64,000 nt of DNA from an uncultured Gemmatimonadales bacterium (GCA_963812035.1 CAWETG010000001.1:654987-718986); one strand, 5' to 3'; positions 30,543 to 62,709 are shown, counted from the first letter of the stretch. Notes: generated by a model from the sequence alone, not told the origin. Numbers and translations are program-made.

Positions 30543-30566
30543 GACGTCGACCCTTCAGACACGCCG

Positions 30567-39655: not shown

Positions 39656-41224
39656 TCAGGAGGCTGTGTGTTCCAGCGCGACGACCTGCGCCAGTTCGCG
39701 ACGCTTTACCTTCCCGCTCGCCGTCAACGGGAGTGCGTCGAAGAACCGCACCAGGTCGGGCACCTTGTAGTCGGCCATCTGCTTCCGGGCGAAGTCCGTG
39801 ATGTCCTCGCCCCGGAGGATGGCGCCCTCAGTCGGTACGACACAGGCGCACACCATCTCACCGAGGATGTCGTGGGGGACGCCCACCACGCAGACCTCCT
39901 CGACGCCAGGATGCGCCCGCAGCACATCTTCCACTTCGCGCGGGTAAACGTTGTAGCCGCCCCGGATGATCATCTCCTTGCGGCGCCCGACGATCCGCAC
40001 GTAGCCGTCTGCTTCCAGCATCGCCAGGTCGCCGGTGAGGAAGAACCCCTCCGGCGTAAAGGAGCGCCGGGTCTCGGCCGGCATCCGGTGGTACCCAGAC
40101 ATCACGTTCGGCCCCTTGACCGCCAGCTCGCCCACGGCCTCGACGCCGTGCAGCTCGCCGGTGGTCACGTCCACGATCCGCAACTCCACGCCCGGCAGCG
40201 GCCGTCCCACTGTCTCCACCCGGCGGTCCGGCGGGTCGTCGGCCCGGGTGAGCGTGACCGTCGGCCCCGTCTCGGTCAGGCCGTAGGCGATCTCGACGTT
40301 GCACGTGCGCCGTACCTCCGTGACCAGGTCGGGCTGGACCGGGCTGCCGGCAATGATCCCCGTCCTGAGCTGCGGCAGCCGCGCCCGCGCGAAGCCGGGC
40401 TGCCGCACCAGAAGGTGGAACATCGTCGGCACCCCGTGACACACGGTCACCCGTTCCCGCACCATCAACTCGACCGTCGCGGCGGGGTCGAACCGCTCGT
40501 CGAGTGCCAGGGTCGCGCCGGCCGCGACCGCGCCCGCCATCACGCTGGTGCCGAAGATCGTGAAGAACGGCACCGCTGCCAGCACCACGTCGTCCGCCGT
40601 GACCCCCAGCGCCCCCGCCACCGCCACCGCTGTCCCCACCACGTTGCGGTGCGAGAGACACACGCCCTTGGGTTTGCCCATCGTGCCCGACGTGTACAGG
40701 ATCGCGAACGTCGCGTCAGGATCACGCGGGCCCGCCGGCGCCTCGAGCCGGGCCCCCTTCGATACCAGGTCCCGGTACGGGAAGACCCGGTCGTCGTACC
40801 AGTAGTCACCGCCGCCGACGGCGACGAGGTACTGGACGTCGGGCAGCTCGGCGATCAACTCGTCGAACAGCTCCACGAAGTCCCTTCCCCCGTGGCTCTC
40901 GGCGGTCACCACCACCGAAGCCTCGGCATGGCGCAACTGGTACGTGAGCTCGTGGTGCCCCAGCCCGGGATTGATGGGAACCAGCACCGCGCCGAGCCGC
41001 GCCGCGGCCAGGGCGGTGGTGAGCCACTCCGGCCAGTTGGGCAGGTTGACGGCGATCGTGTCGCCGGCCTCGATGCCAAGATCGGCGAGGGCTGCGGCGA
41101 AGGCGTCGGCATCACGGCTTGCTTGCGCGTAGGTTAGGCGCCGGTCCCCGCTGACGGTGAACGGCCGCTCAGGATACCGCGCCACGGCGGCGTCGAAAAC
41201 GTCGGCCAGATGAACCGATGGCAA
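39656..41224 (-). CDS. AMP-dependent acyl-CoA synthetase/ligase
   Basis: [17 protein letters not shown] and GKVKRREL motifs. There is no ATG near the N-terminus, so I placed the start at TTG 41224. The start is uncertain. Confidence 0.8.
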
Positions 41225-41337
41225 CGACCTGCCCCCACGCAACGCAAGCAGGGAATTGTACTCACCGCCGGGACCGCTGGCCAGCCGCCGACCTGGCGTC
41301 CCTTGAGGCGCCGGAGCGCCCGACCCCATATTGGCGC

Positions 41338-42624
41338 GTGGCCCTGGCCTTCCGCCGCAGCATTTTCGTCTGGCTCGTCGTGGTCGCGGCGATCCCCGCC
41401 GGCGTCGGCGTCGGGGTGACGCTGCTCGCCCCGCGGCTCGCGGTGCCGGTCGGCGGCGTCGCCGCCTGGGACCGGGCCGGCGCGACGTGGCGCAACGTCG
41501 ACAGCGCGCTCGCCCACCAGAATCTTCCGGCCGCTGCGCGCGCGGCACTGGCGCGCCACCGCGACGAGCTCAGCAACTCGGTGGGGCGCGCGCACCAAAG
41601 CCTGTTCATCCGCAACGCCGTGGCGGCCGCGCTCGGGGGAGTGGTCGCGGCCCTCGCCGCGCTCGTCGCCCTGGGCACCCTCCGCCTCGCCGGCCACCTG
41701 TCGCGTCAGTTGTCGCGTCCGATCGACGAGTTGATCGCCTGGACCGGGCGCCTGACGCGTGGCGAGCCGCTGCCGGACACGCCTCCGGCCAAGGGCGCGC
41801 CCGAGTTCGACGTGCTGCGCAACGCGTTCCGCACCATGGCCGCGGACCTGGCCGCGGCGCGCGCGCGCGACGTGGAGGCCGCGCAGCTCCGGGCCTTCCG
41901 CGACCTCGCCCGCCAGGTGGCCCACGAGCTCAAGAACCCGCTCACGCCGCTGCGCTTCGCCACGTCGCGCCTCACCCAGGAAGCGCGGCCCGACCAGCGC
42001 GAGCTGCTCGAGATCATCGACGGCGAGAGCGAGCGCATCGAGCAGATGGCGAGGGACTTCGCCACCCTGGGCCGGCTGCCCGAAGGACCGCCCGCGGCCG
42101 TCGACCTCGGTGAGCTAGTCGAGACCCTCGTCAAGGGCACTGTGCCTCCCGGCATCGCCGTGCGCATCGATCGGGCGCCGGACCTGCCGATGGTGAGTGC
42201 CCACTACGAGCCGCTGCGCCGGGCGCTGCACAATCTGGTGCTGAACGCATGCGACGCCTGCGAAGCGGCGGGCACGGGGGCACGGGGGCACGGGGGCACG
42301 GACGAGCCGGCGGGCACCGGGCCACGGGGGCACGGGGGCACGGAGGCGGCCACCGCGCCGGCGATCAACATCGCGCTCCGCGCAGTGGCCAACGGCGCCG
42401 CGCCCGCCGTGCAGGTCGTGATCGCGGACACGGGCGTCGGCATCCCGCCCGAGCAGCTGGGCCGGATCTTCGAGCCGTACTTCACCACCAAGGCGAAGGG
42501 AACCGGCCTGGGCCTGGCGCTGGTGCGCCAGACGATCCACGACCACGGGGGCTCGATCGGCGTGGCGAGCGAGCCGGGTCGCGGCACGACGTTCACCATC
42601 ACGCTGCCCTTGGCGCGCGCATGA
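41338..42624 (+). CDS. NtrY-like sensor histidine kinase (2 TM, HAMP, HisKA, HATPase)
   Basis: H-box [13 protein letters not shown]-box [11 protein letters not shown]-boxes DTGVGI and GTGLGLA. Start placed at GTG 41338 because ATG 41218 would overlap the divergent ligase start. Confidence 0.8.
42268..42343 (+). repeat. tandem GGGGCACG octamer tract, duplicated block, in frame inside the kinase gene
   Basis: gcgggcacgggggcacgggggcacgggggcacgg is followed after 8 nt by gcgggcaccgggccacgggggcacgggggcacgg. The tract encodes [25 protein letters not shown] between the N-box and G1-box. Confidence 0.85.
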
Positions 42625-43997
42625 CGCGGCACCCGCTCGTGCTCGTGGTCGACGACGAGGCCAACCTGCGCCGGATGCTGGGCGCGGTGCTCGCGGCCGA
42701 CGGCTACCGCACCGCCGAGGCGGCGTCGGGCACCGAGGCCATCGCCGCCGCCGGGCGCCGCCGGCCCGACGCCGTGTTCCTCGACCTGTCGATGCCGGGC
42801 GGCCCCGACGGGCTCGAGACGCTCGAGCGCCTCAGCGCCGAAGCGCCCGGCGTTCCGGTGATCATGATGAGCGGGCGCGCAGGGCTCTCCGACGCCGTGC
42901 GCGCCACCAAGCTCGGCGCCTACCACTTCCTCGAGAAGCCGCTGGCCCCGGAGGCGGTGCTGCTCACCCTGCACTCGGCGCTCGAGTTGGCGCGCGCCCG
43001 TGCCGAGGCGTCGGCGCTGCGCGAAGTGCTCGGCCCCACCGCCACCCTCGTGGGCTCCAGCCCGCAGATGGCCGAGCTGCGGTCGTTGATCGCCCGGGTC
43101 GCAGCCACCGAAGCACGGGTCCTCGTTTCCGGAGAGTCCGGCACCGGGAAGGAGCTGGTGGCCGGCGCGATTCACGCGGCGAGCCAGCGCGCCGACGGGC
43201 CGTTCGTCCGCGTCAACTGCGCGGCGATCCCGCGCGAGCTCGTGGAGTCGGAGATGTTCGGCCACGAGCGCGGCTCTTTCACCGGCGCGACGGAACGGCG
43301 CGCCGGGCGCTTCGAGCAGGCCGACGGCGGCACGCTGTTCCTCGACGAGGTGGGCGATCTGTCGTCCGAGGCCCAGGCCAAGTTGCTGCGCGCGCTCGAG
43401 GGCGGCGAAGTGGAGCGGGTCGGCGGCGACCGCCCGATCCCAGTCGACGTGCGCGTCGTCTCCGCGACGAACAAGGACCTGGAGCGCGCCGCGCGGGACG
43501 GCCGCTTCCGCGACGACCTGCTCTACCGGCTCAACGTCTTCCCGATCGCCATCCCGCCCCTGCGGGAGCGGCCCGGCGACATCCCGGAGCTGGTGAGCCA
43601 CTTCGCCACTTTGGTCACGCAGCGCATCGGCCGGCCCGCGGTGACCGTGACGGACGAAGCCATGGACGTGCTGGTGCGCCATCCGTGGCCAGGGAACGTG
43701 CGGGAGCTGGCCAACATCGTCGAGCGGCTGATCATCCTCTCGCCACGCTCGTCGATCGGCGCCGACGACGTGGCGGCCGCCCTTCCTGCCGGCGAGGGCC
43801 GGGAGGAGCGGCTCCCCAACCCCGCCGCGATGACGCTGTCGCTGAGCGATGAACTCGACCGCTTCGAGCGGGTGCTGATCGCGCGGGCGCTCTCCGCCGC
43901 CGGCGGCAGCGTGGCGGAAGCCGCGCGCCGCCTCTCGACGGACCGGGCCAACCTCTATCGGAGAATGAAGCGGCTGGGCATCGAGCAGCCGTCGTGA
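42621..43997 (+). CDS. NtrX/NtrC-like response regulator (REC + AAA+ + Fis-type HTH)
   Basis: ATGA overlap with the kinase. DAVFLDLSMPG, Walker A GESGTGKE, a GSFTGA variant of GAFTGA, and C-terminal AARRLSTDRANLYRRMKRLGI. Confidence 0.85.
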   Translation: MTRHPLVLVVDDEANLRRMLGAVLAADGYRTAEAASGTEAIAAAGRRRPDAVFLDLSMPGGPDGLETLERLSAEAPGVPVIMMSGRAGLSDAVRATKLGAYHFLEKPLAPEAVLLTLHSALELARARAEASALREVLGPTATLVGSSPQMAELRSLIARVAATEARVLVSGESGTGKELVAGAIHAASQRADGPFVRVNCAAIPRELVESEMFGHERGSFTGATERRAGRFEQADGGTLFLDEVGDLSSEAQAKLLRALEGGEVERVGGDRPIPVDVRVVSATNKDLERAARDGRFRDDLLYRLNVFPIAIPPLRERPGDIPELVSHFATLVTQRIGRPAVTVTDEAMDVLVRHPWPGNVRELANIVERLIILSPRSSIGADDVAAALPAGEGREERLPNPAAMTLSLSDELDRFERVLIARALSAAGGSVAEAARRLSTDRANLYRRMKRLGIEQPS

Positions 43998-47605: not shown

Positions 47606-48283
47606 ATGTCCGGCTCCCGCCGCTTCGTCGTCATCCAGCACCAGGCTACCGAGGGTCCGGGCCTCATCGCCACGGTGGCCCACGACCACGGCTTTACCCT
47701 GGACGTGCGACGCATGGACCGGGGCGACTCCGTGCCCGCCGCCGACGCGCTCGAAGGCGTCGTCGTCCTCGGCGGCACGATGGGAGCGTACGACGTGGCG
47801 GGCCACCCGCATCTCGCCGCCGAGCAGCGCCTGCTCGCTGAGGCCTGCACCCGCGACATCCCGGTGCTCGGCATTTGCCTCGGCGCGCAACTCCTCGCCG
47901 CCGCACTCGGCGCGCGGGTGTTCAAAGGCCCGGCCGCAGAGATCGGATTCGGCGTCGTCACGCTGACGCCCGAGGGGACGCTCGATCCGATCCTCGGGCC
48001 ATCCGGCCCGGCATTCCCCGCCTTCCACTGGCACGCCGACACTTTCGACCTGCCGTCCGGCGCCGCGCACCTGGTCACCTCAGCCGCGTATCCCCGGCAG
48101 GCGTTCCGCGTCGGCGCGCGGGCCTATGGGCTCCAGTTCCACGTGGAGCTGGACCGGACGCTGGCCCACGACTGGGCCGCGGCGCTGCCGCCCGGCGTCA
48201 AGCTCGAGGAGAAACGCCGCGCGGCCGTGGAACAGACCGGCCGCGCGATCCTGCACCGCTTCTTCGCCGAGGTTCCGCGCTAG
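47606..48283 (+). CDS. class I glutamine amidotransferase-like protein
   Basis: [10 protein letters not shown] (nucleophile Cys) and LQFHVE (His-Glu). Confidence 0.75.
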
Positions 48284-48284
48284 A

Positions 48285-48803
48285 CTAGTGCTGGTGCCCC
48301 ATGCCGCCGTGCCGCATCGGCATCGGGTTCTTCGCCATCGAGTCCACCTGACTCCGCTGCGCATCCGTCAGCAACGCCCGCGCCTGGGCAGCCGCGCGCA
48401 ACATCGCCCACATCGCGTCGCCCATGAACTGGTGCGCTGCATCGAAGTGCGCCTTCACCGCCACGGTGTCCGGCGCCGCGGCCTGCATCGCCTGCTCCAG
48501 CTCCCCCAGGTGTTTCTGGGCCTGGTGCGCCGCCGCGTCGTGCGCCGCCTTCGCCGAATCGCCGAGCGCCGTGAGCTGCGTGACTTGATCGCTCGTGAGG
48601 TGCAGCGCGTCCTTCTGCCTCAGCAGGTGCTGCGGTGCGTCCGCCATGGCGCGCATCATCGGCGCCATCATCGAGTCCATCCCCGGCATCATGTCTCCGC
48701 GCATCGCCCCTCCATGCGCCATGCCTCGATGCGCAGAGGGTTGCTGCGCGGCGAGCGGCGTCGCCGCCGCTACCAGAACCGCCAACACCGCCATAGCCTT
48801 CAT
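48285..48803 (-). CDS. periplasmic LTXXQ (Spy/CpxP/ZraP-like) protein with Met/His-rich termini
   Basis: Start moved to ATG 48803 (AAGGACGGAG upstream) with a signal peptide. Two LTxxQ motifs (LTSDQ, LTDAQ). Met/His-rich tracts HRGMAHGGAMRGDMMPGMDSMMAPMMRAM and PMPMRHGGMGHQH. Confidence 0.65.
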   Translation of the reverse strand: MKAMAVLAVLVAAATPLAAQQPSAHRGMAHGGAMRGDMMPGMDSMMAPMMRAMADAPQHLLRQKDALHLTSDQVTQLTALGDSAKAAHDAAAHQAQKHLGELEQAMQAAAPDTVAVKAHFDAAHQFMGDAMWAMLRAAAQARALLTDAQRSQVDSMAKNPMPMRHGGMGHQH

Positions 48804-49003
48804 AAGCTCAACTCCGTCCTTGAGGTAGGACACAAGGGTAGTGCACTGAGCCGCTTGGTTGCAGTACCCAGCGGAGGAGGGCTGTCGCAATCTGTCCACG
48901 CGCTGTTTGTGAATTCGGACACAAGGGATGTTGTTTGCGTCTAACAACTGTTCGACAACGTCGTAACACAATGAGAGTCAAAGGCTTGCGCACACTTGGA
49001 CAG

Positions 49004-49019
49004 TGGCACAGGCTGTGCG
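49004..49019 (+). promoter_or_regulatory. sigma-54 (-24/-12) promoter candidate upstream of the first multihaem cytochrome
   Basis: TGGCACaggctGTGCg versus the consensus TGGCAC-N5-TTGC. GG-N10-GC spacing is exact, with one mismatch in the -12 box. It lies 80 nt before ATG 49099. Confidence 0.6.
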
Positions 49020-49098
49020 ATCGCATCCGTACGAGTACTTAGCCCTAGCCACGACCGCTACGGGCATTGAACGATTGGGAAGCGCGAGGAAGGGGCTC

Positions 49099-50580
49099 AT
49101 GGATCATCCCATCCAGGTCCGACATCTGCTGGTTGCTTCGGCGTTCGCGGTGCTGGCGACGGCATGCGTGAAGGACAACAATACGACCACGTCGCCGACA
49201 GGGGGCAGCAACCTCACCGCTGCGTTCGTCGGGTACAGCAACCCCACCACGAAGCAGACGACCTGCGGCAACTGCCACGTGTTGAAGCAGGAGACCTGGA
49301 TCCAGACCGGCCACTCTCACGCGTGGGCCGACCTGCAGGCGAGCGGGCACGCGGATACGACTTGCAGCCGGTGCCACTCGACGAATGGCACGAGCAACAC
49401 CGCCCCCGACACCGCCGGCTTCTTCAGCGCTTCGGCGGCGTCGCAGAAGTACTTCGTGGACGTCCAGTGCGAGGCCTGCCACGGTCCCGGGGCGCTGCAC
49501 GTGACGGTGCCTGACCAGACCGGCACGCAGCCAATCCCGTACTTCGTTTCCAAGGACACGACGCTCGGTGTCGGCTGCGGTATGTGCCACTACGGTGCGC
49601 CACACAACCCGTTCTATGAGGACTGGTCGCGCGGGGCCCACGGCATTCTGGAAGCCCCCGCCATCAGCAATGGCGGAACGTGCCTGCAGTGCCACGAGGG
49701 CAAGACGACGATGGAGCGGTTCGGCGGGAGCACCGTGTTCGTCGAGGCCGGCAACGCGACCGCCTACCCGATCGGGTGCACGACCTGCCACGCCCCGCAC
49801 GGCTCCACCAATACCCACGAGCTGCGCGAGTCCATCACCGTCCTCGACACGACGAACCTGTGCATCCAGTGTCACCATCGGAATGCGAATCCCGCCCTCT
49901 CGAACACCCGAGGACCGCACTCGCCGCAGGGGCCGACGTTCCTCGGCACCTCGGGGTGGCGGCCGGTGGGCTTCACCTGGGATTCGACCAACATGACGAC
50001 GCACTCGAACCCCGCTGCCAATCCACTCCTGTGCGCGACCTGTCACGTGGACACGCTCGACGTCAACAACAGCGCCGGCACCCTCGCGTGGCACTACACC
50101 GGGCACAGCTTTTACGCCATCCCCTGCGTGGATACCGCGGGGATCGACTCCACGAATTCGTGCGACGTCTCCGTGCGCAGCTTCGCGGCCTGCACCGCGA
50201 GCGGCTGCCACTCATCCCAAGCCGTGGTGCGGACTGACTTCCAGGCGCTGGGCGCGGAGCTGGCGTACTTCACCGGCGTCCTGTGGACCGACGTCAACGG
50301 CAACGGCAAGATCGACGCGGGCGACACGGGTCTCCTGACCCAGGTCCCGTCCACTGAATTCACGAATACCACGACCATCACGGTGGCGATGGGGGCGCTC
50401 TTCAACGTGCAGTTGGTGAGCGTGGACCAGTCGCACGGCGTGCACAATCCTCCGTACCTGCGGGCGCTGCTGGTCGCGACGATCCAGGCCGTCGAGCAGC
50501 AGTACAACCTGACACCGTCGCCGGCGGTGGACGCACGCGTCCATCAGTTGGCCGCCCAACTCGGCGTGCGCATCCGCTGA
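49099..50580 (+). CDS. multihaem c-type cytochrome, probable lipoprotein (8 CxxCH + 1 CX4CH)
   Basis: Start at ATG 49099 (GAGGAAGGGG upstream). Signal ending LATAC. Haem motifs CGNCH, CSRCH, CEACH, CGMCH, CLQCH, CTTCH, CIQCH, CATCH and CTASGCH. Confidence 0.85.
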   Translation: MDHPIQVRHLLVASAFAVLATACVKDNNTTTSPTGGSNLTAAFVGYSNPTTKQTTCGNCHVLKQETWIQTGHSHAWADLQASGHADTTCSRCHSTNGTSNTAPDTAGFFSASAASQKYFVDVQCEACHGPGALHVTVPDQTGTQPIPYFVSKDTTLGVGCGMCHYGAPHNPFYEDWSRGAHGILEAPAISNGGTCLQCHEGKTTMERFGGSTVFVEAGNATAYPIGCTTCHAPHGSTNTHELRESITVLDTTNLCIQCHHRNANPALSNTRGPHSPQGPTFLGTSGWRPVGFTWDSTNMTTHSNPAANPLLCATCHVDTLDVNNSAGTLAWHYTGHSFYAIPCVDTAGIDSTNSCDVSVRSFAACTASGCHSSQAVVRTDFQALGAELAYFTGVLWTDVNGNGKIDAGDTGLLTQVPSTEFTNTTTITVAMGALFNVQLVSVDQSHGVHNPPYLRALLVATIQAVEQQYNLTPSPAVDARVHQLAAQLGVRIR

Positions 50581-50647
50581 GGCGCGCGCGAGACGGGTAG
50601 GGACCGGCGCAGCAGCCTTCGGCGCTCGACGCCCGGTGGAACGCAGC

Positions 50648-50677
50648 GGGTCGGTCCTCTCCGGACCGGCCCGTTTT
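50648..50677 (+). terminator. intrinsic terminator/attenuator between the first two cytochrome genes
   Basis: gggtcggtcc / tctcc / ggaccggccc (one mismatch), followed by gtttt. Confidence 0.5.
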
Positions 50678-50712
50678 GCGTCTCCGCTCGAACGGTGAGA
50701 GAATAGGTTGCC

Positions 50713-52368
50713 ATGACGCGATACTACGTCTGGGTCTTGGAGCGATGGGCTCACCTGAGGCGCGGGTGGCGCATCGCTTTGGTGGCGGGGTTCACGCTCG
50801 CCCTGGGGAGCGCGTCGGTCGCCGGCTACCGCCAGTGGCACTACATGCAGCACGACAACCACTTCTGCACGTCGTGCCACCTCATGGTGGACCCGTTCCA
50901 GCGATTCAGCCGCAGCGCGCACGCGAAGCTCGAGTGCCACAACTGTCACGAGGGGCGGCTCCCGGAGCAGCTGCACCAGCTCTGGCTCACCGCCGTCACG
51001 AACCCTACGACCATCGGCCGGCACGCCCGGGTCCCGAACGAGGTCTGTGCCAGGTGTCACGTCAGCGGCGATTCCACCAAGTGGAAGATCATCGCCGCCA
51101 CCGCAGGCCACCGGATTCACCTGGAGTCGAAGGACCCGAGGCTCAAGGGAATGCGGTGCGTGGAGTGTCACGGCGTGTCGCTGCACGAGTTCGCGCCGGT
51201 AGACCGCACGTGCGGGCAGGCCGGATGCCACGACCACAATACGATCCAGCTCGGCCAGATGGGGCGGCTCAGCGAGTTGCATTGCACCACCTGCCACAAC
51301 TTCCTGGCCGAGGCGCGGGCGTTTGCGGTGGACTCCCTCGGCAAGCCCCTGACGCCGGCCGCCGCCCAGTGCCTCGCCTGCCACGCGATGCAGGAGAAGA
51401 TGCAGGCGATGGACATCGGCCGGGACCCGCACAACGGGGTCTGCGGCGATTGCCACAATCCGCATACGCAGACCAAGCCCCAGGACGTCAATTGCACCAA
51501 CGCCGGCTGCCATGCCGGCTGGCAGCGGGTGAGCTTCCACAACGGCGTGCCACACCCCGAGCGCTGTACCACCTGCCACCAGCCGCACAGCTGGCGGGTG
51601 GAAGGTCAGAACTGCGTCCGCTGCCACGCCAACATCCCACGGGAGGCCCCAAGCCACGCGCGCCGCGTCTCGCTGTCTCCGCGGTCGCACCTGACGGCCC
51701 CGACGGCGGTCGCCGACTTCGCGTCGGCCGCAGCCGCGTGGCTGCCGGACGCCGCGAGCCAGAACCCTCAGGCCAGCGGGGCGCCGGCTCTCGGGACTCC
51801 GCCGCGCTTCTCCCACGGCGATCACCGGGGGCAGATGTGCTCGAGCTGCCACTCGAGCCGGGTGCGGCACGGCGAGCTGCTGGTGAAGTCCAGCGCCGAC
51901 TGCCAACGCTGCCACCACAGCGGCCCCGAGCGGGCGGAGTGCTCGACCTGCCACGATGTCGCGGCGCTCGGCAAGGCCACGCTGCAGACCGAGCAGACGT
52001 TCCCGGTGGCGGCGAAGCACGCCACCGAGACCCGGCGCCTCCCGTTTGAGCACGCGCGACACCAGGGCTTCCCGTGCACGCAGTGCCACACGAACCCGCT
52101 GTCCCGTGCGCCGGAGGGCGCGGCGTGCGCCGCGTGCCACGCGAGCCATCACACGGCCTCGGCCAACTGCGTCGCCTGTCACGCTGGCACCAGGCCGATC
52201 GCCTTCCACAAGGCCGCCGATCACCCGAACTGCACTTCCTGTCACGGTGCGCGCGCGGCGAACTTGCCTGCCACGCGCGAGATGTGCCTGATGTGTCACA
52301 GCGCCCAGGCGCGGCACGTTCCGGGCGTGGTGTGCGAGCAGTGCCACAAAGTCCTGGCCCGGAGCTGA
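50713..52368 (+). CDS. membrane-anchored NapC/NirT-like cytochrome fused to a long multihaem extension (18 CxxCH + 2 CX4CH)
   Basis: N-terminal TM segment WRIALVAGFTLALGSASVAGY, followed by HFCTSCHLM (NapC/NirT-type first haem). I counted 20 haem motifs in 551 aa. Confidence 0.85.
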   Translation: MTRYYVWVLERWAHLRRGWRIALVAGFTLALGSASVAGYRQWHYMQHDNHFCTSCHLMVDPFQRFSRSAHAKLECHNCHEGRLPEQLHQLWLTAVTNPTTIGRHARVPNEVCARCHVSGDSTKWKIIAATAGHRIHLESKDPRLKGMRCVECHGVSLHEFAPVDRTCGQAGCHDHNTIQLGQMGRLSELHCTTCHNFLAEARAFAVDSLGKPLTPAAAQCLACHAMQEKMQAMDIGRDPHNGVCGDCHNPHTQTKPQDVNCTNAGCHAGWQRVSFHNGVPHPERCTTCHQPHSWRVEGQNCVRCHANIPREAPSHARRVSLSPRSHLTAPTAVADFASAAAAWLPDAASQNPQASGAPALGTPPRFSHGDHRGQMCSSCHSSRVRHGELLVKSSADCQRCHHSGPERAECSTCHDVAALGKATLQTEQTFPVAAKHATETRRLPFEHARHQGFPCTQCHTNPLSRAPEGAACAACHASHHTASANCVACHAGTRPIAFHKAADHPNCTSCHGARAANLPATREMCLMCHSAQARHVPGVVCEQCHKVLARS

Positions 52369-52370
52369 CG

Positions 52371-53768
52371 ATGCACTACCGCCTCCTCTCGACCTGTGCC
52401 CTGCTGCTCGGGCTCGCCGCGCCCGCAACGACACTACTTGCCCAGTCGGTGCGGCTGCACGGGACGACCACGACACAGTACATCCAACTGCGCCCCATCC
52501 AATACGATTCGTCAGCCGATTCGGGGGCCGGGGCCTACGTAGCGCTGCCGGTCGCGTACGCGGCGCCCTTCACCCAGGACCTGGAGCTGTCGGCGTGGGG
52601 GCTCGGGATGACGGGCCTGCGCGCTTACGCCCTGGTACGCGGGCGCGCGGCGCTGGGCTCCGAGTTGATCTGGCCGCAGTCCGACATGCACTTCGAGGCC
52701 CTGGATGCGTACCTGGAGCTGGAGCGGCCGCAGTACCTGCTGCGCCTCGGACGGCAGCAGCACTCGTCGGGGCTCGGATTCTACGGGTTCGATGGGCTGA
52801 CGGCCTTGTGGCGCCCGCTGGCCGCGCTGCACGTCGAGGGCTACGGCGGACGCGGCCTGGCGCGCGCCTCGGACGAGTCGTACAACAGCTCGGCCATCGC
52901 CTCGCTCGATCCGCTCCGCCCGGATCTGGGAACCATTCTGCTGGGGGCGTCGCTGTGGGCCGCCCCCACGGCGCGCTCGACTTTCTCGGCGATCTATCAA
53001 CGCGAGCTGCTGAGCGATGCCAGCGGCCTGGTGTCGGAGCGCGCCGCCTTCGACGGCCGCGTGGGGCTCGGCTCGCACCTGATCCTCTCGGCCTCGGCCG
53101 ACGCCGACATCGCGCGCGAGCAGTGGGGCAAGGCGAGCATCAGCGCGATGCTCCTCCTGCCGCGCGGCACCTCCCTCGAGATCGAAGCCTTCCAGTACCG
53201 GCCGACGCTCGATCTGTCGACCATCTGGGGGGTATTCACGCCGGAATCGCACTCCGGGTATTCGGCCACGGCCACCGTGGCGGCCGCCCGCGACCTGACG
53301 TTCTCCGGCGCCTTCACCTACCGGCACTGGCAGCCGCTCAGCTCCGGCTCGCCGTTCCTCGTGGACGTCGGCGACGACCAGAAGGAAGTTTCGCTCGGCG
53401 CGCACGCGCGCCGCGGAGTGTTCACCGTGGACGCCGGCTACCACCTGCAGCTCGGCTACGGCGGAGACCAGAGTGGCGGAGACCTCAGCGTCACCTACGC
53501 GATGCCGCGCGGGTGGCACCTCGGCGTCCAGACGACCGCGTTTCAGCAGACCGACATGTTCCGCGTCGCCGACGGCACCGTCTACGGGGTGGGGGGAAAC
53601 GTGAAGACCCCGCTCGGCCGGCGGCTGGGCCTGAGCGCTGAAGCCACGCGGTACTTCCACCGCCGCCTCACGGGCTCGACCAGCATCGACTGGAACCAGA
53701 CGCGGGCCTCGGTCAGCCTCGATTGGACCATCGGCGCCGACGCCGATCGCACCGGGAGCTATCGATGA
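52371..53768 (+). CDS. outer-membrane beta-barrel (porin-like) protein embedded between cytochrome genes
   Basis: ATG 2 nt after the upstream stop. Signal MHYRLLSTCALLLGLAAPATTLLAQ. No Cys-haem motifs. Alternating strand-like segments rich in Gly, Tyr and Ser (GYHLQLGYGGDQSGGDLSVTYAMP...). Confidence 0.65.
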   Translation: MHYRLLSTCALLLGLAAPATTLLAQSVRLHGTTTTQYIQLRPIQYDSSADSGAGAYVALPVAYAAPFTQDLELSAWGLGMTGLRAYALVRGRAALGSELIWPQSDMHFEALDAYLELERPQYLLRLGRQQHSSGLGFYGFDGLTALWRPLAALHVEGYGGRGLARASDESYNSSAIASLDPLRPDLGTILLGASLWAAPTARSTFSAIYQRELLSDASGLVSERAAFDGRVGLGSHLILSASADADIAREQWGKASISAMLLLPRGTSLEIEAFQYRPTLDLSTIWGVFTPESHSGYSATATVAAARDLTFSGAFTYRHWQPLSSGSPFLVDVGDDQKEVSLGAHARRGVFTVDAGYHLQLGYGGDQSGGDLSVTYAMPRGWHLGVQTTAFQQTDMFRVADGTVYGVGGNVKTPLGRRLGLSAEATRYFHRRLTGSTSIDWNQTRASVSLDWTIGADADRTGSYR

Positions 53769-55204
53769 TCGCCCGCGCGCTCACGGCCCTGCTCGCGCTG
53801 GTGGCCGCGCTGACCGGCACGCCGGCCCGTCACCGGGCGGGGCCTGCCCTCGCGGGCCAGGTGGCCACCGACACCTTCCCGCACGCACGCCACGCGAACC
53901 TGTTCACGACCTGCGCGTCGTGCCACGCCGGGATCTCGACCGGCGACACCGCCGCGCTGTGGCCGTCGCCGGAGCTGTGCGCCGGCTGTCACAACGGCGA
54001 TCTGGCGCGCCAGGTGAACTGGACGCCACGGCCACCGCGGGTCACCAATCTCAGCTTCGACCACGTGCCCCACGTCGCGATGTTCGAGTCGATGGACAGC
54101 GGAGGCGCCACCTGCCAGCGCTGCCATGCGCCGGCGGACTCCCTTCCCTTCATGGAGGTCGGCCGCGCGTCGCCGGAGCGGTGCGTGGGCTGCCACGGCC
54201 AGGGCGCGACGAGCCACCTGACGCAGACCAGCTGCGAGCCGTGCCACACCACGCTCCACGACGCCGCCGCGCTCGACACGGCGGCGATCCACGCGTTCCC
54301 CAGGCCCCCGTCGCACGACTCCGACTGGGTCCTGCACCACCAGAGCGCCGCCGCCGGCACGACCTGCGCGGTGTGCCACGCGCAGCCGTTCTGCGCCTCG
54401 TGCCACGTCAACGCGCGGATGGTGCAGGCCATCGAGAGCCTTCCGCCGGACGACCGCGTGGCCGCGATGGTGCGGGGACGGCAGGTCGCCTACCCGCGCC
54501 CGCCGTCCCACCTGGCGGCGGACTGGGACCGCGCTCACGGCGCCGTCGCCAAAGCCGGCGTGGCGGAGTGCGCCAACTGCCACGCCCAGGAGTCGTGCCT
54601 CGGCTGCCATCGCATCCAGGAGCGTGTGCCCGCGATCGCGGCGCTGCCGCGCCGCACCGCCGGCGCCGCGCCTGGCGTCAACCTCGCGGGCTTGAGGCCT
54701 GCCACCCATCTGCCCGACATGCAGCTGCGGCATCGCACGCTCGCTGCCGGCGGCGCCACGACCTGCAGCACGTGCCACCGGCCCTCGTACTGCGCGAGCT
54801 GCCACGACGCGGCCAAGGCGCCGAGCTTCCACGGCGCCAACTTCGTCCAGCGGCATGCGCAGCAGGCCTACGCCGCCGAGGCGGAGTGCACGGCCTGCCA
54901 CCAGACTCAGATCTTCTGCCGCGACTGTCACCAGAGGCTGGGGCGGGCCAACACCAACGCGCCGCTCGGCGGCGGCAGCTACCACGACAAGCAGCCCGGC
55001 TGGTTGTTCGGCCACGGCGGCGTGGCGCGCCGCTCCATCGAGACCTGCGCCAGCTGCCACGCCCAGGACTTCTGCGTGCGCTGCCACTCGGCGACGAGCG
55101 GCTGGCACATCAACCCGCACGGAGCCGGTTTCAACCCGAGCGTCGAGAGCAAGAACCCGGCGATGTGCCTCATCTGCCACACGACCGGCGTGCCCACCCA
55201 CTGA
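53765..55204 (+). CDS. 16-haem c-type cytochrome, secreted, with doubled-CxxCH pattern
   Basis: ATGA overlap with the barrel gene, then a signal peptide. 16 CxxCH motifs, many in close pairs (CAVCHAQPFCASCH, CANCHAQESCLGCH, CSTCHRPSYCASCH, CTACHQTQIFCRDCH, CASCHAQDFCVRCH). Confidence 0.85.
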   Translation: MIARALTALLALVAALTGTPARHRAGPALAGQVATDTFPHARHANLFTTCASCHAGISTGDTAALWPSPELCAGCHNGDLARQVNWTPRPPRVTNLSFDHVPHVAMFESMDSGGATCQRCHAPADSLPFMEVGRASPERCVGCHGQGATSHLTQTSCEPCHTTLHDAAALDTAAIHAFPRPPSHDSDWVLHHQSAAAGTTCAVCHAQPFCASCHVNARMVQAIESLPPDDRVAAMVRGRQVAYPRPPSHLAADWDRAHGAVAKAGVAECANCHAQESCLGCHRIQERVPAIAALPRRTAGAAPGVNLAGLRPATHLPDMQLRHRTLAAGGATTCSTCHRPSYCASCHDAAKAPSFHGANFVQRHAQQAYAAEAECTACHQTQIFCRDCHQRLGRANTNAPLGGGSYHDKQPGWLFGHGGVARRSIETCASCHAQDFCVRCHSATSGWHINPHGAGFNPSVESKNPAMCLICHTTGVPTH

Positions 55205-55294: not shown

Positions 55295-56554
55295 CTACCT
55301 TGGCGCGGCCCCGGGCGCGAGGAACCGCTCCCGCCGCCGACGCGCCTGGGCGTGGGCGGCCCAGCCAACAGCCACTGGCGCAATCACCGCGATGACCCAG
55401 AGCACCGGCACCGAGAGGCCCAGCTCTGCGCCGAAACCCGCCAGCGACAGCGCGAGGAAGAGCGTGATGGTGGCGAGCCCGAGGGCGAGCCGCAGCGGGC
55501 TCTCCAACGGGGGCTCCGTGTAGTAGAGCGACGACGGCCCCCGATCGAGCCACGGCACCAGCACGATCACCAGGGAGAGAATCCCGGGCACGAGCATCGC
55601 GCCGAAGACCTCCGACCCGATCGTCGCACCGAACAGCTTAAAGCTGAGCCCCCCGGGGATCAGGCGCAGCGCACCGTACACCCACAGCAGGTACCAGTCG
55701 GGTTTCACCTCCGGCGTCACCGGCTGCGGCGGCCCATAGAAGGCGGAGGGGTGCACCGGGAGGAACGCCGCCAGGGCCGCCAGCACGCCCAGCAGCACCA
55801 GGAACAGCACCCCCATCAGCGCGACCTGCTCCGGCCAGAGCGGAATCCCGCGGATGTAGGCACCCTCGGCCGCGTCGGGCCGGACCCCGGCGCGCCGCAT
55901 CTCGGTGTGCTTCTGCTTGAGCACGATGACGAGGTGCAGGGCGATCAGCCCGCTCAATGCCAGCGGCGCCCACACCACGTGGTAGGCGAAGAACCGCGGC
56001 ACGGTGGCGCTCGACGGGAACTGCCCGGCGAACACGAGATCCGCGAGGGTGGAGCCGACCCACGGCACCGAGCGCGCGATGCCGTACCCGATGGCGGTCG
56101 CCGTCACGGAGAACTGATCGAAGGGGAGCAGGTAGCCGGCGAACGACGCGCCGAGCGTGGCGCCGAGCAGCCCCAGGCCGAGCACCCAGTTCACCTCGCG
56201 CGGCTTGCGGTACGAGGCGGTGAAATAGATCCGGAGGAGGTGCAGGAGGACGGCCGCGATCATCAGATGGGCCGCCCAGTGGTGAATCCGCCGCATCAAC
56301 GCCCCGAACGGGTGGCTGTCGATGAGCAGCGTGCTCGCGTACGCCGCAGGCGCGGCGCCGTGCCCCGAGAGGAGCTGCGCCGAAGGCTCGTAGAACAGGG
56401 CCAGGTAGAGCCCCGTCGCCACCAGGATCACGAAGCAGAAGAGCGCGATCTCGCCCAAGAAGAATGTCGAGTGGACCGGGAAGGGCTTGCCGAGGTACTT
56501 GGCGCGGAAGCGTTCGAGCGCGAGCCGCTCGTCGAGCCAGCGTGGCACGGTCAT
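55295..56554 (-). CDS. cytochrome b (bc/b6f-type, N- and C-terminal domains fused)
   Basis: 419 aa and polytopic. RRIHHWAAHLMIAAVLLHLLRIYF and later His-bearing helices are present. Confidence 0.85.
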   Translation of the reverse strand: MTVPRWLDERLALERFRAKYLGKPFPVHSTFFLGEIALFCFVILVATGLYLALFYEPSAQLLSGHGAAPAAYASTLLIDSHPFGALMRRIHHWAAHLMIAAVLLHLLRIYFTASYRKPREVNWVLGLGLLGATLGASFAGYLLPFDQFSVTATAIGYGIARSVPWVGSTLADLVFAGQFPSSATVPRFFAYHVVWAPLALSGLIALHLVIVLKQKHTEMRRAGVRPDAAEGAYIRGIPLWPEQVALMGVLFLVLLGVLAALAAFLPVHPSAFYGPPQPVTPEVKPDWYLLWVYGALRLIPGGLSFKLFGATIGSEVFGAMLVPGILSLVIVLVPWLDRGPSSLYYTEPPLESPLRLALGLATITLFLALSLAGFGAELGLSVPVLWVIAVIAPVAVGWAAHAQARRRRERFLAPGAAPR

Positions 56555-56567
56555 CCGCGGGCCCCCC

Positions 56568-57140
56568 CTACGCCTTGACGCCGATCGGCGCGCTGAACGG
56601 CCCGGCGACGATCACCTCACCCTTGGCGTTCAACTTGACCGGCAGCTGCGGCAGCGGCCGCGGCGCGGGACCGCCCAGGACCGTGCACCCGTGCTGTGGG
56701 TCGAACATCGCGCCGTGGCACGGGCAATGGACATGCGGGAAGGGGGCCTGTTCCATCGGCTCCTCGGAGAACCGCACCGTACAACCCAGGTGCGTACAGA
56801 TCGCGCTGTAGGCCACGATGCCGTGGGCGGTGCCGGCGATGTCGGTCGGCGGCTGGACCTGCGCCGGATCGAGCTTGCAGACCATCGCCAGGTTCTCGTG
56901 GTTGTCGGACTTCCCCTCGGGATATGCGAGCACCGCTTCGTTCTGGGTGAAGCTCCCCTCCGTGATCGCCTCGCCCGCGTTGCCCCCCAGGGCGAAGACC
57001 AGCCGGTCCCCGGCCTCGACCCCGCGCGTGGCCGACGTGCGGGAGCGCCCCCGCAAGGTGATCACGCCCGGCAGGAGCGCCGCGATGGCGGCGACGATGC
57101 CCGTCTTCAGCGACCAGTTCGCGAAGCGTCGGCGATCCAC
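56568..57140 (-). CDS. Rieske 2Fe-2S subunit
   Basis: Twin-arginine signal MDRRRFANW. Cluster boxes CTHLGCTV and CPCHGAMF. GGGAGG SD upstream. Confidence 0.9.
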   Translation of the reverse strand: MDRRRFANWSLKTGIVAAIAALLPGVITLRGRSRTSATRGVEAGDRLVFALGGNAGEAITEGSFTQNEAVLAYPEGKSDNHENLAMVCKLDPAQVQPPTDIAGTAHGIVAYSAICTHLGCTVRFSEEPMEQAPFPHVHCPCHGAMFDPQHGCTVLGGPAPRPLPQLPVKLNAKGEVIVAGPFSAPIGVKA

Positions 57141-57153
57141 GCGTCCAACCTCC

Positions 57154-58159
57154 CTACCAGGGAATCCCGTCGTCGCGTTCCGTGCGGATGGACTCCCAGC
57201 GCACGAACGCGCGGCTGTACATCACGACGATGCCGGCCAGCGCGAGCAGCCCCACCGCCAGGCTCGACCCCAGCAGCCAGACCGGCTCCGCCCGCGCGAC
57301 GGCCACCGCGAAGGTCGCGAGGGACGCCACCTCCACCACCATGAAGACCGGGATCAGCGCCATCGCCACCCCCGTCCGCTCCGCGGAGGCGCCCTCGGCG
57401 GCGTGGGAGCCTTCGGCCCAACCCGCCACCACCCCATGCACGCCGACGATCAGGAGGACCGCCATCCACACGGTGATCATGATCTGGACGTCGGTGAGGT
57501 GATCCGGCAGCAGCGCCCCGCCCGCGGCCTCAGCCGGCGGCCCCGCGAACAGGTCGAGGAGCGCCACGGCCTTGTGCCCCCCGGCGTGGTACGCGGTGAA
57601 GTCCTTCGCGTCGGCGGACGCCATGAGCACGCGCGTCTGGCCCGCCATGATCGGCTGGTCCGTGCTGTCGTGCGCGGCCAGCGGCCGCTCGAACTCGATC
57701 GTCGTGCCGGCCGCGGTCGTGAGCCCCGCCGAGCCGAGGATGTCGTCGTGGCCGCCCAGGGCCGTGTCGGCCACGTGCGACACCGGAGTATTCGCGTAGT
57801 CGTCCTCCACGTGGGCGCCGCGCGCGTCTACGTAGCCGATCACGATGTCGGCGCCAAACATCAGCGGCCCCGCGCCCCCGAACCCTATGGCAACCCAACC
57901 CGTGTTCGGGCGTCGAAATCGCGCCGATCAGGCGGTCGCCGACGATGCTCCACTCGAAGGCAAGCTGGCTCGCCGGATCCACCCACCGGAATTGGTACTC
58001 CCCGGGGGTGATGCGGCCGTCGAGCTGGTGGGTGGCGTGGCCGGGCCGCGCCAGCGCGAGCAGCCGCTGCGGAAGCCGGAGCGTGAAGGCGAGGAGCAGC
58101 GCGAGCACCACGCCCGCGCCCAGCGCCACCAGCGGGAGGCGATCCCGGCCTGGCGTCAC
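57154..58159 (-). pseudogene. DOMON-domain membrane protein interrupted by a single-base frameshift (or a sequencing indel)
   Basis: GTG 58159 (GAGGAGGGG upstream, GTGA overlap with the upstream stop) opens ...ITPGEYQFRWVDPASQLAFEWSIVGDRLIGAISTPEHG. The frame then breaks at gggttgggttgcc (about 57897). Dropping one T restores ...HGWVAIGFGGAGPLMFGADIVIGYVD, which continues into ORF 57154..57861 with 3 C-terminal TM helices. The length of 1006 nt is not a multiple of 3. Confidence 0.7.
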
Positions 58160-58941
58160 TCGCCCCTCCTCGGATTGCGCGGCACCGCGCCGATGCCGCT
58201 CTCGCGCGGGGCCGGGTGCCCAAGAGCCTGCCAGGCCTCCACGAGGGCCTGCCTCGCTTCCCCAAGTCGCGCCGCCGCCGAGTCGAGGCGGAAGCTGTGC
58301 CAGACCTCGGCCGCCGCGCTCAGATGCCGCTCGGCATCCCCGAGCAGGATGGTGGCGCGCGCGCCGGCACGGGTGCCGCGCCGCCCCGCGGCGTCGGTCG
58401 AGACGACGTCGAAGAGAATGTTCTCGGTTCGGACCAGCGCCAGAACCCGGGAGGCCTCCCGCGCCTTCTCGGGCGGCGCGACCCCGCCCTCCACGTGGCA
58501 CGCCGAGCACGTCGTCAGCAGCCGCTCAGGGGTGAGGATCGACGTGGCCATCGAGCCGTGGCAAGTCACGCAGTTCGGGCCCCGGCCGTCGGACTCCAGC
58601 CGCGCGAAGTGCAGGCTCGTGCGGAAATACGCCGCTTCAGCGGCGTGGCACCGGCCGCAGGTGTCAGGGATGCGCGTGAAGAACACCGGGCTCGAAGGTT
58701 GACTCGACAACAGCACGCCCTGGTGTGCCGCGGCCGCGTTGGTGGCGGCGGGATTCCCTCCGTGACACGCCTCGCAGGTCACACCGGCCGCCGCGTGGGG
58801 GGACGCCTGCCATGCGGCGAAGCCGTGGCCCGCGCCGGAGGCCCCGCTCTGGCGGGCGTGGCAGGTCATGCATTCGCTGCGCGGCGGCCGCTGGCGAGCG
58901 TGGGCCGGCACCGCCGCGAGCGCCACGGCCAACGCTGCCAT
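58156..58941 (-). CDS. pentahaem c-type cytochrome
   Basis: CMTCH, CEACH, CGRCH, CVTCH and CSACH. Start placed at ATG 58941 (MAALAVALAAVPAHA). The longer ORF would overlap the upstream gene by 80 nt. Confidence 0.75.
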   Translation of the reverse strand: MAALAVALAAVPAHARQRPPRSECMTCHARQSGASGAGHGFAAWQASPHAAAGVTCEACHGGNPAATNAAAAHQGVLLSSQPSSPVFFTRIPDTCGRCHAAEAAYFRTSLHFARLESDGRGPNCVTCHGSMATSILTPERLLTTCSACHVEGGVAPPEKAREASRVLALVRTENILFDVVSTDAAGRRGTRAGARATILLGDAERHLSAAAEVWHSFRLDSAAARLGEARQALVEAWQALGHPAPRESGIGAVPRNPRRGE

Positions 58942-59002
58942 CGGCACCACACGCCAGCGGAGCAGCCCGCGCTCACGACCGACTTGACGACCGGGGCGCA
59001 GC

Positions 59003-59440
59003 TCAGCCACCGCCCGGGCCCGGAGCAGGTGCGGCCGCCACCTCGTGACACAGCTTGCACGTGGAGCCGTCGAAATTCGCATGCGACACGGGGGGCGACG
59101 GAGCGGCGCCCGGCACCGGGGCGGCGCCCGCTACCGCCTGCACGTGGCACTTCCGGCACTCCGCATGCACCTCGTCAGCGGCGTGCTTGATCGGGGTCGG
59201 CGTCTCCGCGATCGGCTTGTGGCACATCCCGCACGCGCCGTTGGCAAAGTGGTGCGTCGCCGGCACGCTGGTGATGTGCGCGTTGGCCCCGGCGCCGTGG
59301 CAGCTCAGACAGTCCTGCTTCCCTGCCGCCGGGTGCAGCATCCGCGGCGGCGTGTGCGGCGCCGCCTGCGCACGCAACGTGGACGCGCCCACCCAGGCCA
59401 CGAGGGCGGCGGACGCGAGCGCTGCACGTACCGCGCTCAT
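59003..59440 (-). CDS. tetrahaem c-type cytochrome
   Basis: Start at ATG 59440 with AGGAGG SD, then a signal peptide. CLSCH, CGMCH, CRKCH and CKLCH. Confidence 0.8.
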   Translation of the reverse strand: MSAVRAALASAALVAWVGASTLRAQAAPHTPPRMLHPAAGKQDCLSCHGAGANAHITSVPATHHFANGACGMCHKPIAETPTPIKHAADEVHAECRKCHVQAVAGAAPVPGAAPSPPVSHANFDGSTCKLCHEVAAAPAPGPGGG

Positions 59441-59492
59441 GCTCACCTCCTGCGCACAGCGCGCCGATGCCGGCCGCCGGCGGCTCGAGTCC

Positions 59493-59825
59493 CTAGTGTT
59501 TGCTGAACGTCCTGATGTAGCTGACGAGAGCGGCAATCTGCTCCGGCGTGAGCCGGCTCTTGTACGACGGCATCATACGACCCTTGCCGTTCATCACCGT
59601 CGCGCGCAGGACGCTGTCCGGCACCGATGCCAGCGTAGCCGCTACCCCGAAATCCGGCACACCCATCGAGGTCTTCATCGACGCAGTCGGCGTGCCTGCC
59701 GCGCCGTGGCACGAGGCACAAGTCTTCGCGAACAGCGTCGCTGCGCCGGCCGGCTGCTGGGCGCGCAGCGTCACCGCTGCAGCGAGTCCGAGCGCGACCG
59801 TCAGGAGAATTGCTTTCGTCGCCAT
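59493..59825 (-). CDS. monohaem class I cytochrome c
   Basis: GGAAGG SD and a signal peptide. CASCH plus a downstream Met (GKGRMMPSY). C-terminal LTPEQIAALVSYI is typical of c55x-type proteins. Confidence 0.85.
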   Translation of the reverse strand: MATKAILLTVALGLAAAVTLRAQQPAGAATLFAKTCASCHGAAGTPTASMKTSMGVPDFGVAATLASVPDSVLRATVMNGKGRMMPSYKSRLTPEQIAALVSYIRTFSKH

Positions 59826-60185
59826 GAAGCCTTCCGATCTCAGGAGTCCACTCGCCGCGGCGGAGTGCCGGCGGCACGAGCCACAACACGGACGAACGCC
59901 ACACCCGCAGGCCCTGGCCTCAGCTCATTGGCACACTGGCTCAGCGCCAAGCGCCGGGCTGCGGGGAGAGGAATCTATATGCCGCCTGTCGAAATGCCAT
60001 TTTCATCCTCAAAAAAAACCGACAGAATTCCGAATGATTGACTAGGAGACTTTGGCCGCTGGGCAACGAGCCCATTGGCCGAGCCTCGGTGCCGCAGGAT
60101 AACTACCTCCGGGAGGCCTCCAATTGGCCCCCAGGCAGCCCTTTGGTTGCTATCATGGCGCAACCTGACGAGCTTTCGGGACAGG

Positions 60186-61260: not shown

Positions 61261-61268
<8 letters not shown>
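60186..61268 (+). CDS. cytoplasmic PAS-domain sensor histidine kinase
   Basis: Start moved to ATG 60186. PAS region (ILDMAADAIICVGPDDRVLSCNRGAEKMLGW...DGHIVDVSIT). H-box VAHEIGAPLTAI, N-box LFLNAQRAM, DNGPGI and GGTGLGLA. No TM segment. Confidence 0.85.

Positions 61269-62709
<1,441 letters not shown>

Follow-up and report, generated by a model that had tools for sequence, protein, structure and literature searches.

What turns on a multiheme cytochrome operon in an uncultured Gemmatimonadales bacterium is the question raised by a 64,000 nt stretch of its genome (GCA_963812035.1, CAWETG010000001.1:654987-718986), hereafter called the window. Within it, the cytochrome gene cytA and a gene for an LTXXQ-family periplasmic protein diverge from an intergenic gap of 295 bp, in which a preliminary description, made from the sequence, had placed a sigma-54 promoter preceded by activator-binding sites. 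The same description called this divergent region unusually AT-rich, and indeed its G+C content is 52–54 %, compared with 70 % for the window. Taking all evidence together, our best explanation is that the gap probably carries a sigma-54 promoter and an enhancer, which together would drive a cytochrome/porin operon.

Relatives of the locus were collected in two ways, i.e. by a protein-based scan of species-representative genomes, which yielded seven Gemmatimonadales loci with cytA products 63–78 % identical to that of the window, and by a metagenome scan with the invariant 19-mer TTGTGAATTCGGACACAAG, which returned 42 contigs with exact matches. All but one of these contigs (41/42) represent the same locus type with the same layout; the single unrelated contig, L010, is without the flanking elements and was set aside as probably a chance match. 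Column conservation was computed in bits over 38 distinct orthologous loci from metagenome-assembled genomes (MAGs) of Gemmatimonadales and from metagenome contigs, and the conservation values given below refer to this set unless another is named. The MAG relatives carry isolate labels including fen_, SPRUCE and MFD. When eight upstream regions were aligned, discrete footprints appeared with unalignable sequence between them, and the four footprints upstream of the predicted transcription start are as follows.

48883 to 48898, plus strand: enhancer (upstream activating sequence) block 1, TGTCGCAATCTGTCCA, centred at about -140, with GTC-N7-GTC one helical turn apart
48906 to 48929, plus strand: enhancer block 2, TTTGTGAATTCGGACACAAGGGAT, centred at about -112, with TGT-N10-ACA at 48908–48923
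48963 to 48989, no strand assigned: AT-rich dyad TAA-N4-(T)TG-N5-CAA-N4-TTR, centred at 48976 (about -54), between enhancer and promoter
49004 to 49018, plus strand: sigma-54 (-24/-12) promoter TGGCACaggctGTGC, recognized by its conservation across loci

The promoter had been described as TGGCACaggctGTGCg at 49004–49019 with exact -24/-12 spacing, and it is found there, with GG at 49005–49006 and GC at 49017–49018 (GG-N10-GC). It is sense-oriented and lies 80 nt upstream of the cytA ATG (49099), this distance being 76–117 nt in the relatives, and all seven protein-found relatives have TGGCA[CT]-N5-nTGC 89–116 nt ahead of the start codon. The GG-N10-GC spacing is the same in all 38 orthologous loci, in which T, G, G, C and A (49004–49008) as well as T, G and C (49016–49018) are invariant and C49013 is kept in 36. 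Mean conservation over the promoter reaches 1.52 bits per column, compared with 0.17 and 0.67 bits in the adjoining stretches. A consensus scan of positions 48200–50800 for sigma-70 promoters and terminators called no promoter and found no sigma-70-like hexamer pair. Because conservation falls on precisely the positions read by sigma-54, and because such a hexamer pair is missing from the scanned region, we regard 49004–49018 as very likely to be a real sigma-54 promoter. We infer from the sequence that it would be used by sigma-54, with a start site near 49030 and a leader of 69 nt.

The two blocks upstream are even more strongly conserved, with means of 1.89 (block 1) and 1.91 bits per column (block 2). 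The conservation of block 1 is not imposed by the search pattern, and block 2 is also invariant in 8 loci retrieved by protein homology alone. The blocks are separated by a variable 7–8 bp. Block 2 and TGGCA are 97 bp apart in 26 loci; the interval is 98 bp in 10 others and 96 bp in one. Activators of this kind usually act from 100–140 bp upstream, with IHF in between (PMC7962754), and the block centres at about -140 and -112 fit this usual range of enhancer-binding proteins (EBPs). Block 2 has TGT-N10-ACA and, around GAATTC, a partial palindrome (13 nt, 77 %); block 1 has the direct GTC-N7-GTC. Given this pattern of conservation, it is a good working assumption that blocks 1 and 2 are activator sites. 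Block 1 and the 19-mer of block 2 each occur once in the window, even at up to three mismatches, and a second copy of either block, as expected for a shared regulon or autoregulation, was not found in the window at that threshold; this single occurrence points to a dedicated, single-target regulator.

The AT-rich dyad between enhancer and promoter is conserved as well: A48965, T48972, A48980, T48986 and T48987 are invariant in all 38 loci, and mirrored positions are complementary. In the window it includes an IHF-like AGTCAAAGGCTTG (48976–48988), one mismatch from WATCARNNNNTTR, the IHF consensus quoted in PMC7962754. Across the 38 loci, the aligned site mostly shows two to three mismatches, and shuffled spacers give best matches at least as good as the real ones. 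We therefore reject its assignment as an IHF site and call the dyad a candidate site of a bending protein or a second regulator, the former being a tentative reading with somewhat less than an even chance. The strictly fixed 97/98 bp phasing points to a bent or looped architecture.

More distant relatives show how far this arrangement extends. Loci L051 and L052 keep the promoter and enhancer architecture, while L053 and L054 have a diverged form consisting of promoter, dyad and the core of block 1; in these two clusters the promoter reads CGGCAC-N5-GTGC or TGGCAT-N5-GTGC. L055 and L056, which carry solo cytA homologues, are without the enhancer and dyad architecture.

The promoter faces a group of genes that would be transcribed in the following order.

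49099 to 50580, plus strand: cytA, the first gene, a multiheme c-type cytochrome of 493 aa with eight CxxCH motifs and one variant and a lipoprotein-like signal
50646 to 50677, plus strand: GC-rich hairpin followed by a short T tract, GCGGGTCGGTCC-TCTC-CGGACCGGCCCG-TTTT, between cytA and cytB
50713 to 52368, plus strand: cytB, a cytochrome with 18 CxxCH (18–20 heme motifs) and an N-terminal membrane anchor
52371 to 53768, plus strand: gene for a predicted outer-membrane beta-barrel of 465 aa
53765 to 55204, plus strand: cytD, a cytochrome with 16 CxxCH

The cytA product matches Pfam cytochrome families and has orthologues in all loci. In L018 and L051 it is only 46–47 % identical, while the flanking proteins there are 64–95 % identical, which suggests that this lipoprotein cytochrome evolves by diversification or has undergone allelic replacement. 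The remaining three genes (50713–55204) abut or overlap at their ends. The hairpin that separates them from cytA has a predicted stem of 12–13 bp, very stable and found at an equivalent position in each of the 17 loci examined; the consensus terminator scan did not call it. Judging from these predictions, it is likely an attenuator or partial terminator setting the ratio of cytA to cytB, barrel gene and cytD expression.

The barrel sequence gave no match in Pfam, NCBIfam or the PDB. Its AlphaFold2 model, built from 41 homologues, is an all-beta barrel (predicted local distance difference test score 77.9, predicted template modelling score 0.72), and its Foldseek matches are all outer-membrane barrels, the best being generic porins, AlgE and the barrels of TonB receptors. 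A family of 157 proteins was collected at E≤1e-10, nearly all with names from Gemmatimonadetes or Gemmatimonadales MAGs and one with an Acidimicrobiales label. On the strength of the modelled barrel and its outer-membrane matches, the cluster of cytA, cytB, the barrel gene and cytD looks like a porin-cytochrome-type module.

Which protein could act at the enhancer? The preliminary description had named a GAFTGA-bearing activator encoded 12 kb away; this gene exists as described, with the domain order REC-AAA+-HTH_8, and a second activator of the same type on the other side of the operon had been missed. Each of the two has a kinase gene directly upstream.

41161 to 42624, plus strand: HAMP-HisKA sensor kinase, identified by its domain content
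42639 to 43997, plus strand: EBP1, the second NtrC-type activator (REC-AAA+-HTH_8), with the loop GSFTGA
60075 or 60185 to 61268, plus strand: PAS histidine kinase, identified by its domain content
61261 to 62709, plus strand: EBP2, an NtrC-type activator with REC, an AAA+ domain with GAFTGA, and HTH_8

EBP2 matches PF00072, PF00158 and PF02954 of Pfam, has its GAFTGA at residue 229 and aligns over its full length with the NtrC-family and ZraR structures 4l4u, 1ny5 and 1ojl. Against NCBIfam, every score of both activators and both kinases stays below the equivalog cut-offs. The pair of PAS kinase and EBP2 genes follows cytD directly in three relatives, with a 193 nt gap in L051, an overlap in L053 and a 12 nt gap in L054. 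EBP2 is also the best-conserved protein of the region: its identity is 95 % in L051 and 81 % in both L053 and L054, compared with 44–77 % for the cytochromes there. We favour EBP2 as the candidate activator of the operon because in relatives it lies, together with its kinase, directly after the operon genes, and rate this assignment as slightly better than an even chance.

In the window, a cluster of bc-complex type separates cytD from the PAS kinase and EBP2. It occupies 55295–59830 on the minus strand and comprises genes for a Rieske protein, a cytochrome b, a DOMON protein, a multiheme cytochrome and a small class-I cytochrome c. A cluster of this type stands at the same position in L023, L041 and L052 and is absent there in L051, L053 and L054. 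Judging from this distribution, it is apparently a lineage-specific insertion or rearrangement, which in the lineage of the window came to lie between cytD and the regulator pair. No conserved sigma-54 promoter is visible in the interval from this cluster to the PAS kinase gene.

Combining these elements, the promoter at 49004–49018 would transcribe cytA and, by read-through of the conserved hairpin, cytB, the barrel gene and cytD, whose products would form a porin-cytochrome-type electron conduit of this bacterium. Like all sigma-54 promoters, it would remain silent until an AAA+ EBP remodels the closed complex. The activator would bind the enhancer formed by the blocks at 48883–48898 and 48906–48929, and either an IHF- or HU-like protein, perhaps at the AT-rich dyad around -54 between enhancer and promoter, or the DNA itself would bring it to the polymerase. 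EBP2 would be phosphorylated by the adjacent cytoplasmic PAS kinase and then activate, so that the conduit would be expressed in response to a signal from inside the cell, perhaps the redox state. Both the assignment of a protein to either block and the nature of the sensed signal are presumptive here.

Several observations weigh against this model. Compared with the extended consensus TGGCAC-N5-TTGCW, the promoter deviates at one of 10 specified bases (TTGC being replaced by GTGC) and has G at -11, its -12 element reading GTGCG instead of TTGCW. Matches to TGGCAC-N5-TTGC with at most one mismatch are expected 4.3 times per window and found twice, and a crude weighted scan ranks the site only about fifth to sixth among the GG-N10-GC sites of the window. 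On its own, then, the motif is not significant: what strongly supports the earlier promoter call is phylogenetic footprinting, with all 38 loci in agreement. Significance comes from conservation only, and this covers the promoter and the second copy of the repeat discussed below, not the first copy or the palindrome. The transcription start at about 49029–49031 is itself a prediction.

No open reading frame (ORF) with an RpoN box and no IHF or HU gene was found in the window or in any of the fetched relative loci; the presence of rpoN in the genome can be presumed because two activators with intact sigma-54 contact loops are encoded. A search of the literature for rpoN in Gemmatimonadetes and for a TTG-N5-CAA site returned nothing usable. 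The blocks are without a clean dyad, and the direct GTC-N7-GTC of block 1 is unusual for dimers with a Fis-type HTH; near-total invariance over 40 bp also exceeds the needs of a typical binding site. L053 and L054 retain a GTCGCA-N4-GTC core of block 1 about 120 bp upstream of the promoter; their block 2 has diverged, yet the HTH of EBP2 is almost identical. This loss of block 2 would fit EBP2 acting on block 1 only, or block 2 serving another factor. Finally, both activator pairs are syntenic in relatives, so that linkage does not exclude EBP1.

Downstream of the promoter, three further stretches are conserved or potentially structured.

49026 to 49038, plus strand: conserved start-site block TCCGTACGAGTAC, about -4 to +9, spanning the predicted start, its role unexplained
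49042 to 49065, plus strand: candidate 5'-leader hairpin, in which GCCCTAGC (49042–49049) pairs with GCTACGGGC (49057–49065)
49068 to 49098, plus strand: conserved leader segment TGAACGATTGGGAAGCGCGAGGAA, with the Shine-Dalgarno GAGG (49086–49089) followed by the spacer to the ATG

The start-site block has a mean of 1.80 bits, with T, C, G, A, G, A, T, A and C invariant in the 38 loci, and is also present in L051 and L052. The columns of the segment 49068–49098 are nearly invariant in an alignment of 34 leaders. In folds of most of these 34, a hairpin appears that includes the conserved 3' arm GCyACGGGC (mean z -1.57, 22 of 34 below -1). For the hairpin as defined by hand, MAFFT and covariance-model alignments gave weak covariation, the observed score being reached by 5 of 500 shuffles, with 67 % of cells paired; single cases look compensatory, namely GACC/GGUC in L018 and GCCAG/CUGGC in L048. 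RNAalifold found no consensus structure for the 34 leaders, the single-sequence fold of the window's leader is no better than shuffles (z = 0.74), and Rfam gave no match for the intergenic region (E up to 1) or for seven related loci (gathering threshold). We do not claim a structured leader RNA; the hairpin is a possible element suggested by these folds.

Among the alternatives, the one that survives best assigns the operon to EBP1 with its membrane HAMP kinase, or to both activators, one on each block, which would combine periplasmic and cytoplasmic signals. EBP1 is closer, i.e. 5 kb upstream, it is 81–96 % conserved and its synteny upstream of Omp85/DUF4390 is kept in the window and in L012, L034, L048, L051 and L054; moreover, the enhancer consists of two separable blocks, of which only block 1 survives in L053 and L054. 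That constant company is also what speaks against it, since EBP1 is always found with Omp85/DUF4390 and not with cytochrome genes, whereas the genes for EBP2 and its kinase adjoin or overlap cytD in L051, L053 and L054, and the EBP1 loop is the variant GSFTGA. We consider this reading rather unlikely, at about one chance in four by our own judgement, and keep EBP2 as the favoured activator.

A broader version, in which the region is a multi-input switch, appears less probable still. Here, EBP2 with its PAS kinase and EBP1 with its periplasm-facing HAMP kinase would each use one block, a third, dimeric regulator would bind the dyad, and the leader elements would form a post-transcriptional or repressor layer; the invariant start-site block, the leader hairpin and the GGA-rich ribosome-binding segment may represent such an added layer. 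The excess invariance over 40 bp, the loss of block 2 with retention of block 1 in L053 and L054, and the unexplained block at +1 are compatible with it. If it were true, expression of the electron conduit in peat Gemmatimonadales would integrate several signals.

The preliminary description had seen the enhancer differently, as two copies of GGACACAAGGG together with a GTTGTT-N7-AACAAC palindrome, all of them activator-binding sites. These sequences exist: the first copy lies at 48828–48838 as reported, the second at 48917–48927 instead of 48916–48926, which makes the spacing 89 and not 88 bp, and the palindrome has its GTTGTT at 48930–48935 and its AACAAC at 48943–48948. An exact 11-mer repeat within about 100 bp (83 % identity in an 18 nt register), with GGACAnAAC kept at the first position in some relatives, gives the idea some appeal; at up to one mismatch, 29 of 100 shuffles contain at least two matches to the 11-mer. 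The first copy, however, belongs to the 5' leader of the divergent LTXXQ gene, 25–35 bp away from its start codon, and the sequences aligned with it in relatives are not identical (AGCCACAAGAG, GGACAGAAC and others). The L003-type clade, in which the promoter and blocks 1 and 2 are invariant, lacks it, and in relatives with a 350 bp spacer its position is more than 300 bp from the enhancer. The columns of the palindrome are near random (mean 0.35 bits). The proposal of an upstream enhancer is upheld, and the second copy falls inside block 2; neither the first copy nor the palindrome qualifies as an enhancer site, and the anatomy is otherwise that of blocks 1 and 2. That all three sequences are activator sites seems very improbable to us.

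Least probable of all, and barely credible in our view, is that TGGCA-N6-TGC is an operator or another class of promoter and the invariant blocks bind a regulator other than an EBP: the chance-level motif, the OmpR-type regulator divergently encoded beside the same region in L052 and a block invariance unusually high for an enhancer could be read that way, but the invariant positions are the sigma-54-critical ones (T, GG, C, A; T, GC) at exact spacing, in sense orientation and 80–100 nt before the ATG, sigma-70-like hexamers were not found in the scan of 48200–50800, and two activators with GAFTGA-type loops flank the cluster.

A few further sites in the window resemble parts of the architecture and were set aside. 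The only other one-mismatch match to the sigma-54 motif, 32771–32785 (TGGCACGTCGTTCGC), is inside a long ORF (30477–33497), and a sigma-54 candidate at 59153 lies in conserved minus-strand sequence encoding CxxCH motifs, upstream of the annotated cytE ORF. In front of the PAS kinase gene, at 59980–60060, CCTGTCGAAATGCC...CCGACAGAATTCCGAATG has CTGTCG and GAATTC in common with the enhancer, but 10 bp further apart. The likeness does not extend to L023, is not followed by a sigma-54 motif and is probably a coincidence.

The gene on the other side of the gap and its spacer have features of their own.

48285 to 48803, minus strand: gene for an LTXXQ (CpxP/Spy/ZraP-like) periplasmic protein with weak Pfam matches to LTXXQ and Metal_resist

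The protein has a signal peptide, 11.6 % Met and 12 His, and no sigma-54 motif was seen on its strand when the sequence was read. In many relatives, the spacer between this gene and the enhancer is about 350 bp long, and within it about 200 nt form a conserved element in which GCCGCGGGGTTGCAG and CTGCAACCTCGCGGC are complementary over a long range and which also has an internal GGCGGG-TCGT-CGCCCGC hairpin (L001:960-1150, L032:1133-1325, L037:595-782, L042:202-394, L043:189-377 and L045:2605-2792; also L048, L018 and L030). In the window only about 30 nt of it remain (48839–48872), apparently after a deletion. Substitutions of the G-U type fit pairing on the LTXXQ-sense strand; the element has no Rfam match, and RNAalifold covariation is weak (8 close sequences). 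It is possible, on this comparative evidence, that it is a leader RNA of the LTXXQ gene. In L052 (1650-1730), an OmpR-type response regulator is divergently encoded beside the same enhancer, and the spacer there has four to five TGCAAC/CGCAAC repeats, recalling CTGCAACC upstream of the LTXXQ gene elsewhere; they are possibly sites for a regulator of the envelope-stress type.

Set beside known systems, the promoter is an ordinary example of a well-known type, and the layout is the textbook one of enhancer, bend and -24/-12 element. NifA sites have the shape TGT-N10-ACA, as does block 2. With glnAp2/NtrC and nifH/NifA-IHF the region shares GG-N10-GC, a pair of activator sites about 110–140 bp ahead of the start, an AT-rich element in the interval from these to the promoter, and fixed helical phasing. 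It differs from them in its host, a member of the Gemmatimonadales, in its target, a cytochrome/porin operon, and in its candidate activators, which are of the REC type and not GAF-type like NifA; in addition, the half-sites of block 1 are direct and not inverted, and the middle element is a symmetric dyad whose IHF match is at the level of shuffled sequence.

In Geobacter sulfurreducens, BccR (REC-AAA+-HTH) is needed to induce the sigma-54-dependent cytochrome operon cbcBA (10.1101/2021.04.15.440034). By analogy, this is the closest functional precedent, as both cases have a REC-AAA+-HTH regulator beside a respiratory cytochrome operon with a -24/-12 promoter and, as far as the comparison carries, an inducible electron-transfer module. 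The Geobacter system belongs to another phylum, and cbcBA encodes an inner-membrane bc-type cytochrome, while an outer-membrane conduit is predicted here. Moreover, BccR is divergently adjacent to its target, whereas here the regulator is downstream of the operon with the bc-complex cluster between.

Two further comparisons concern the neighbours and the products. With zraP-zraSR of Escherichia coli, the locus shares an LTXXQ/CpxP-family periplasmic gene, here divergent to the sigma-54 promoter region, and EBP2 and its kinase score next-best to the AtoS/AtoC and ZraS/ZraR models and the ZraR structure (1ojl). In contrast to that system, the sigma-54 promoter faces the cytochrome gene and not the LTXXQ gene, and the regulators score below the NCBIfam equivalog cut-offs. 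Pcc- and Mtr-type conduits likewise have multiheme cytochromes flanking the gene of a large outer-membrane beta-barrel in one operon; unlike theirs, the barrel described here gave no sequence match in Pfam, NCBIfam or the PDB that would tie it to MtrB/OmbB-type porins, and the likeness to such conduits is one of gene content and predicted fold.

If our model is correct, it extends the sigma-54 control of respiratory cytochromes, for which Geobacter provides the precedent, to another phylum, without revealing a new mechanism. The invariant 19-mer is a near-specific metagenome tag for the locus, given that 41 of its 42 exact matches belong to this locus type, and it may help to recover the locus or to place its transcription start in metatranscriptomes. 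The cytochrome/porin module would thereby gain a testable regulatory handle, consisting of a two-component activator, a single-target enhancer and a promoter that is tightly off or on. For uncultured Gemmatimonadales, the practical gain would be that an electron-transfer module comes with its regulator, its enhancer and a DNA tag specific to the locus.

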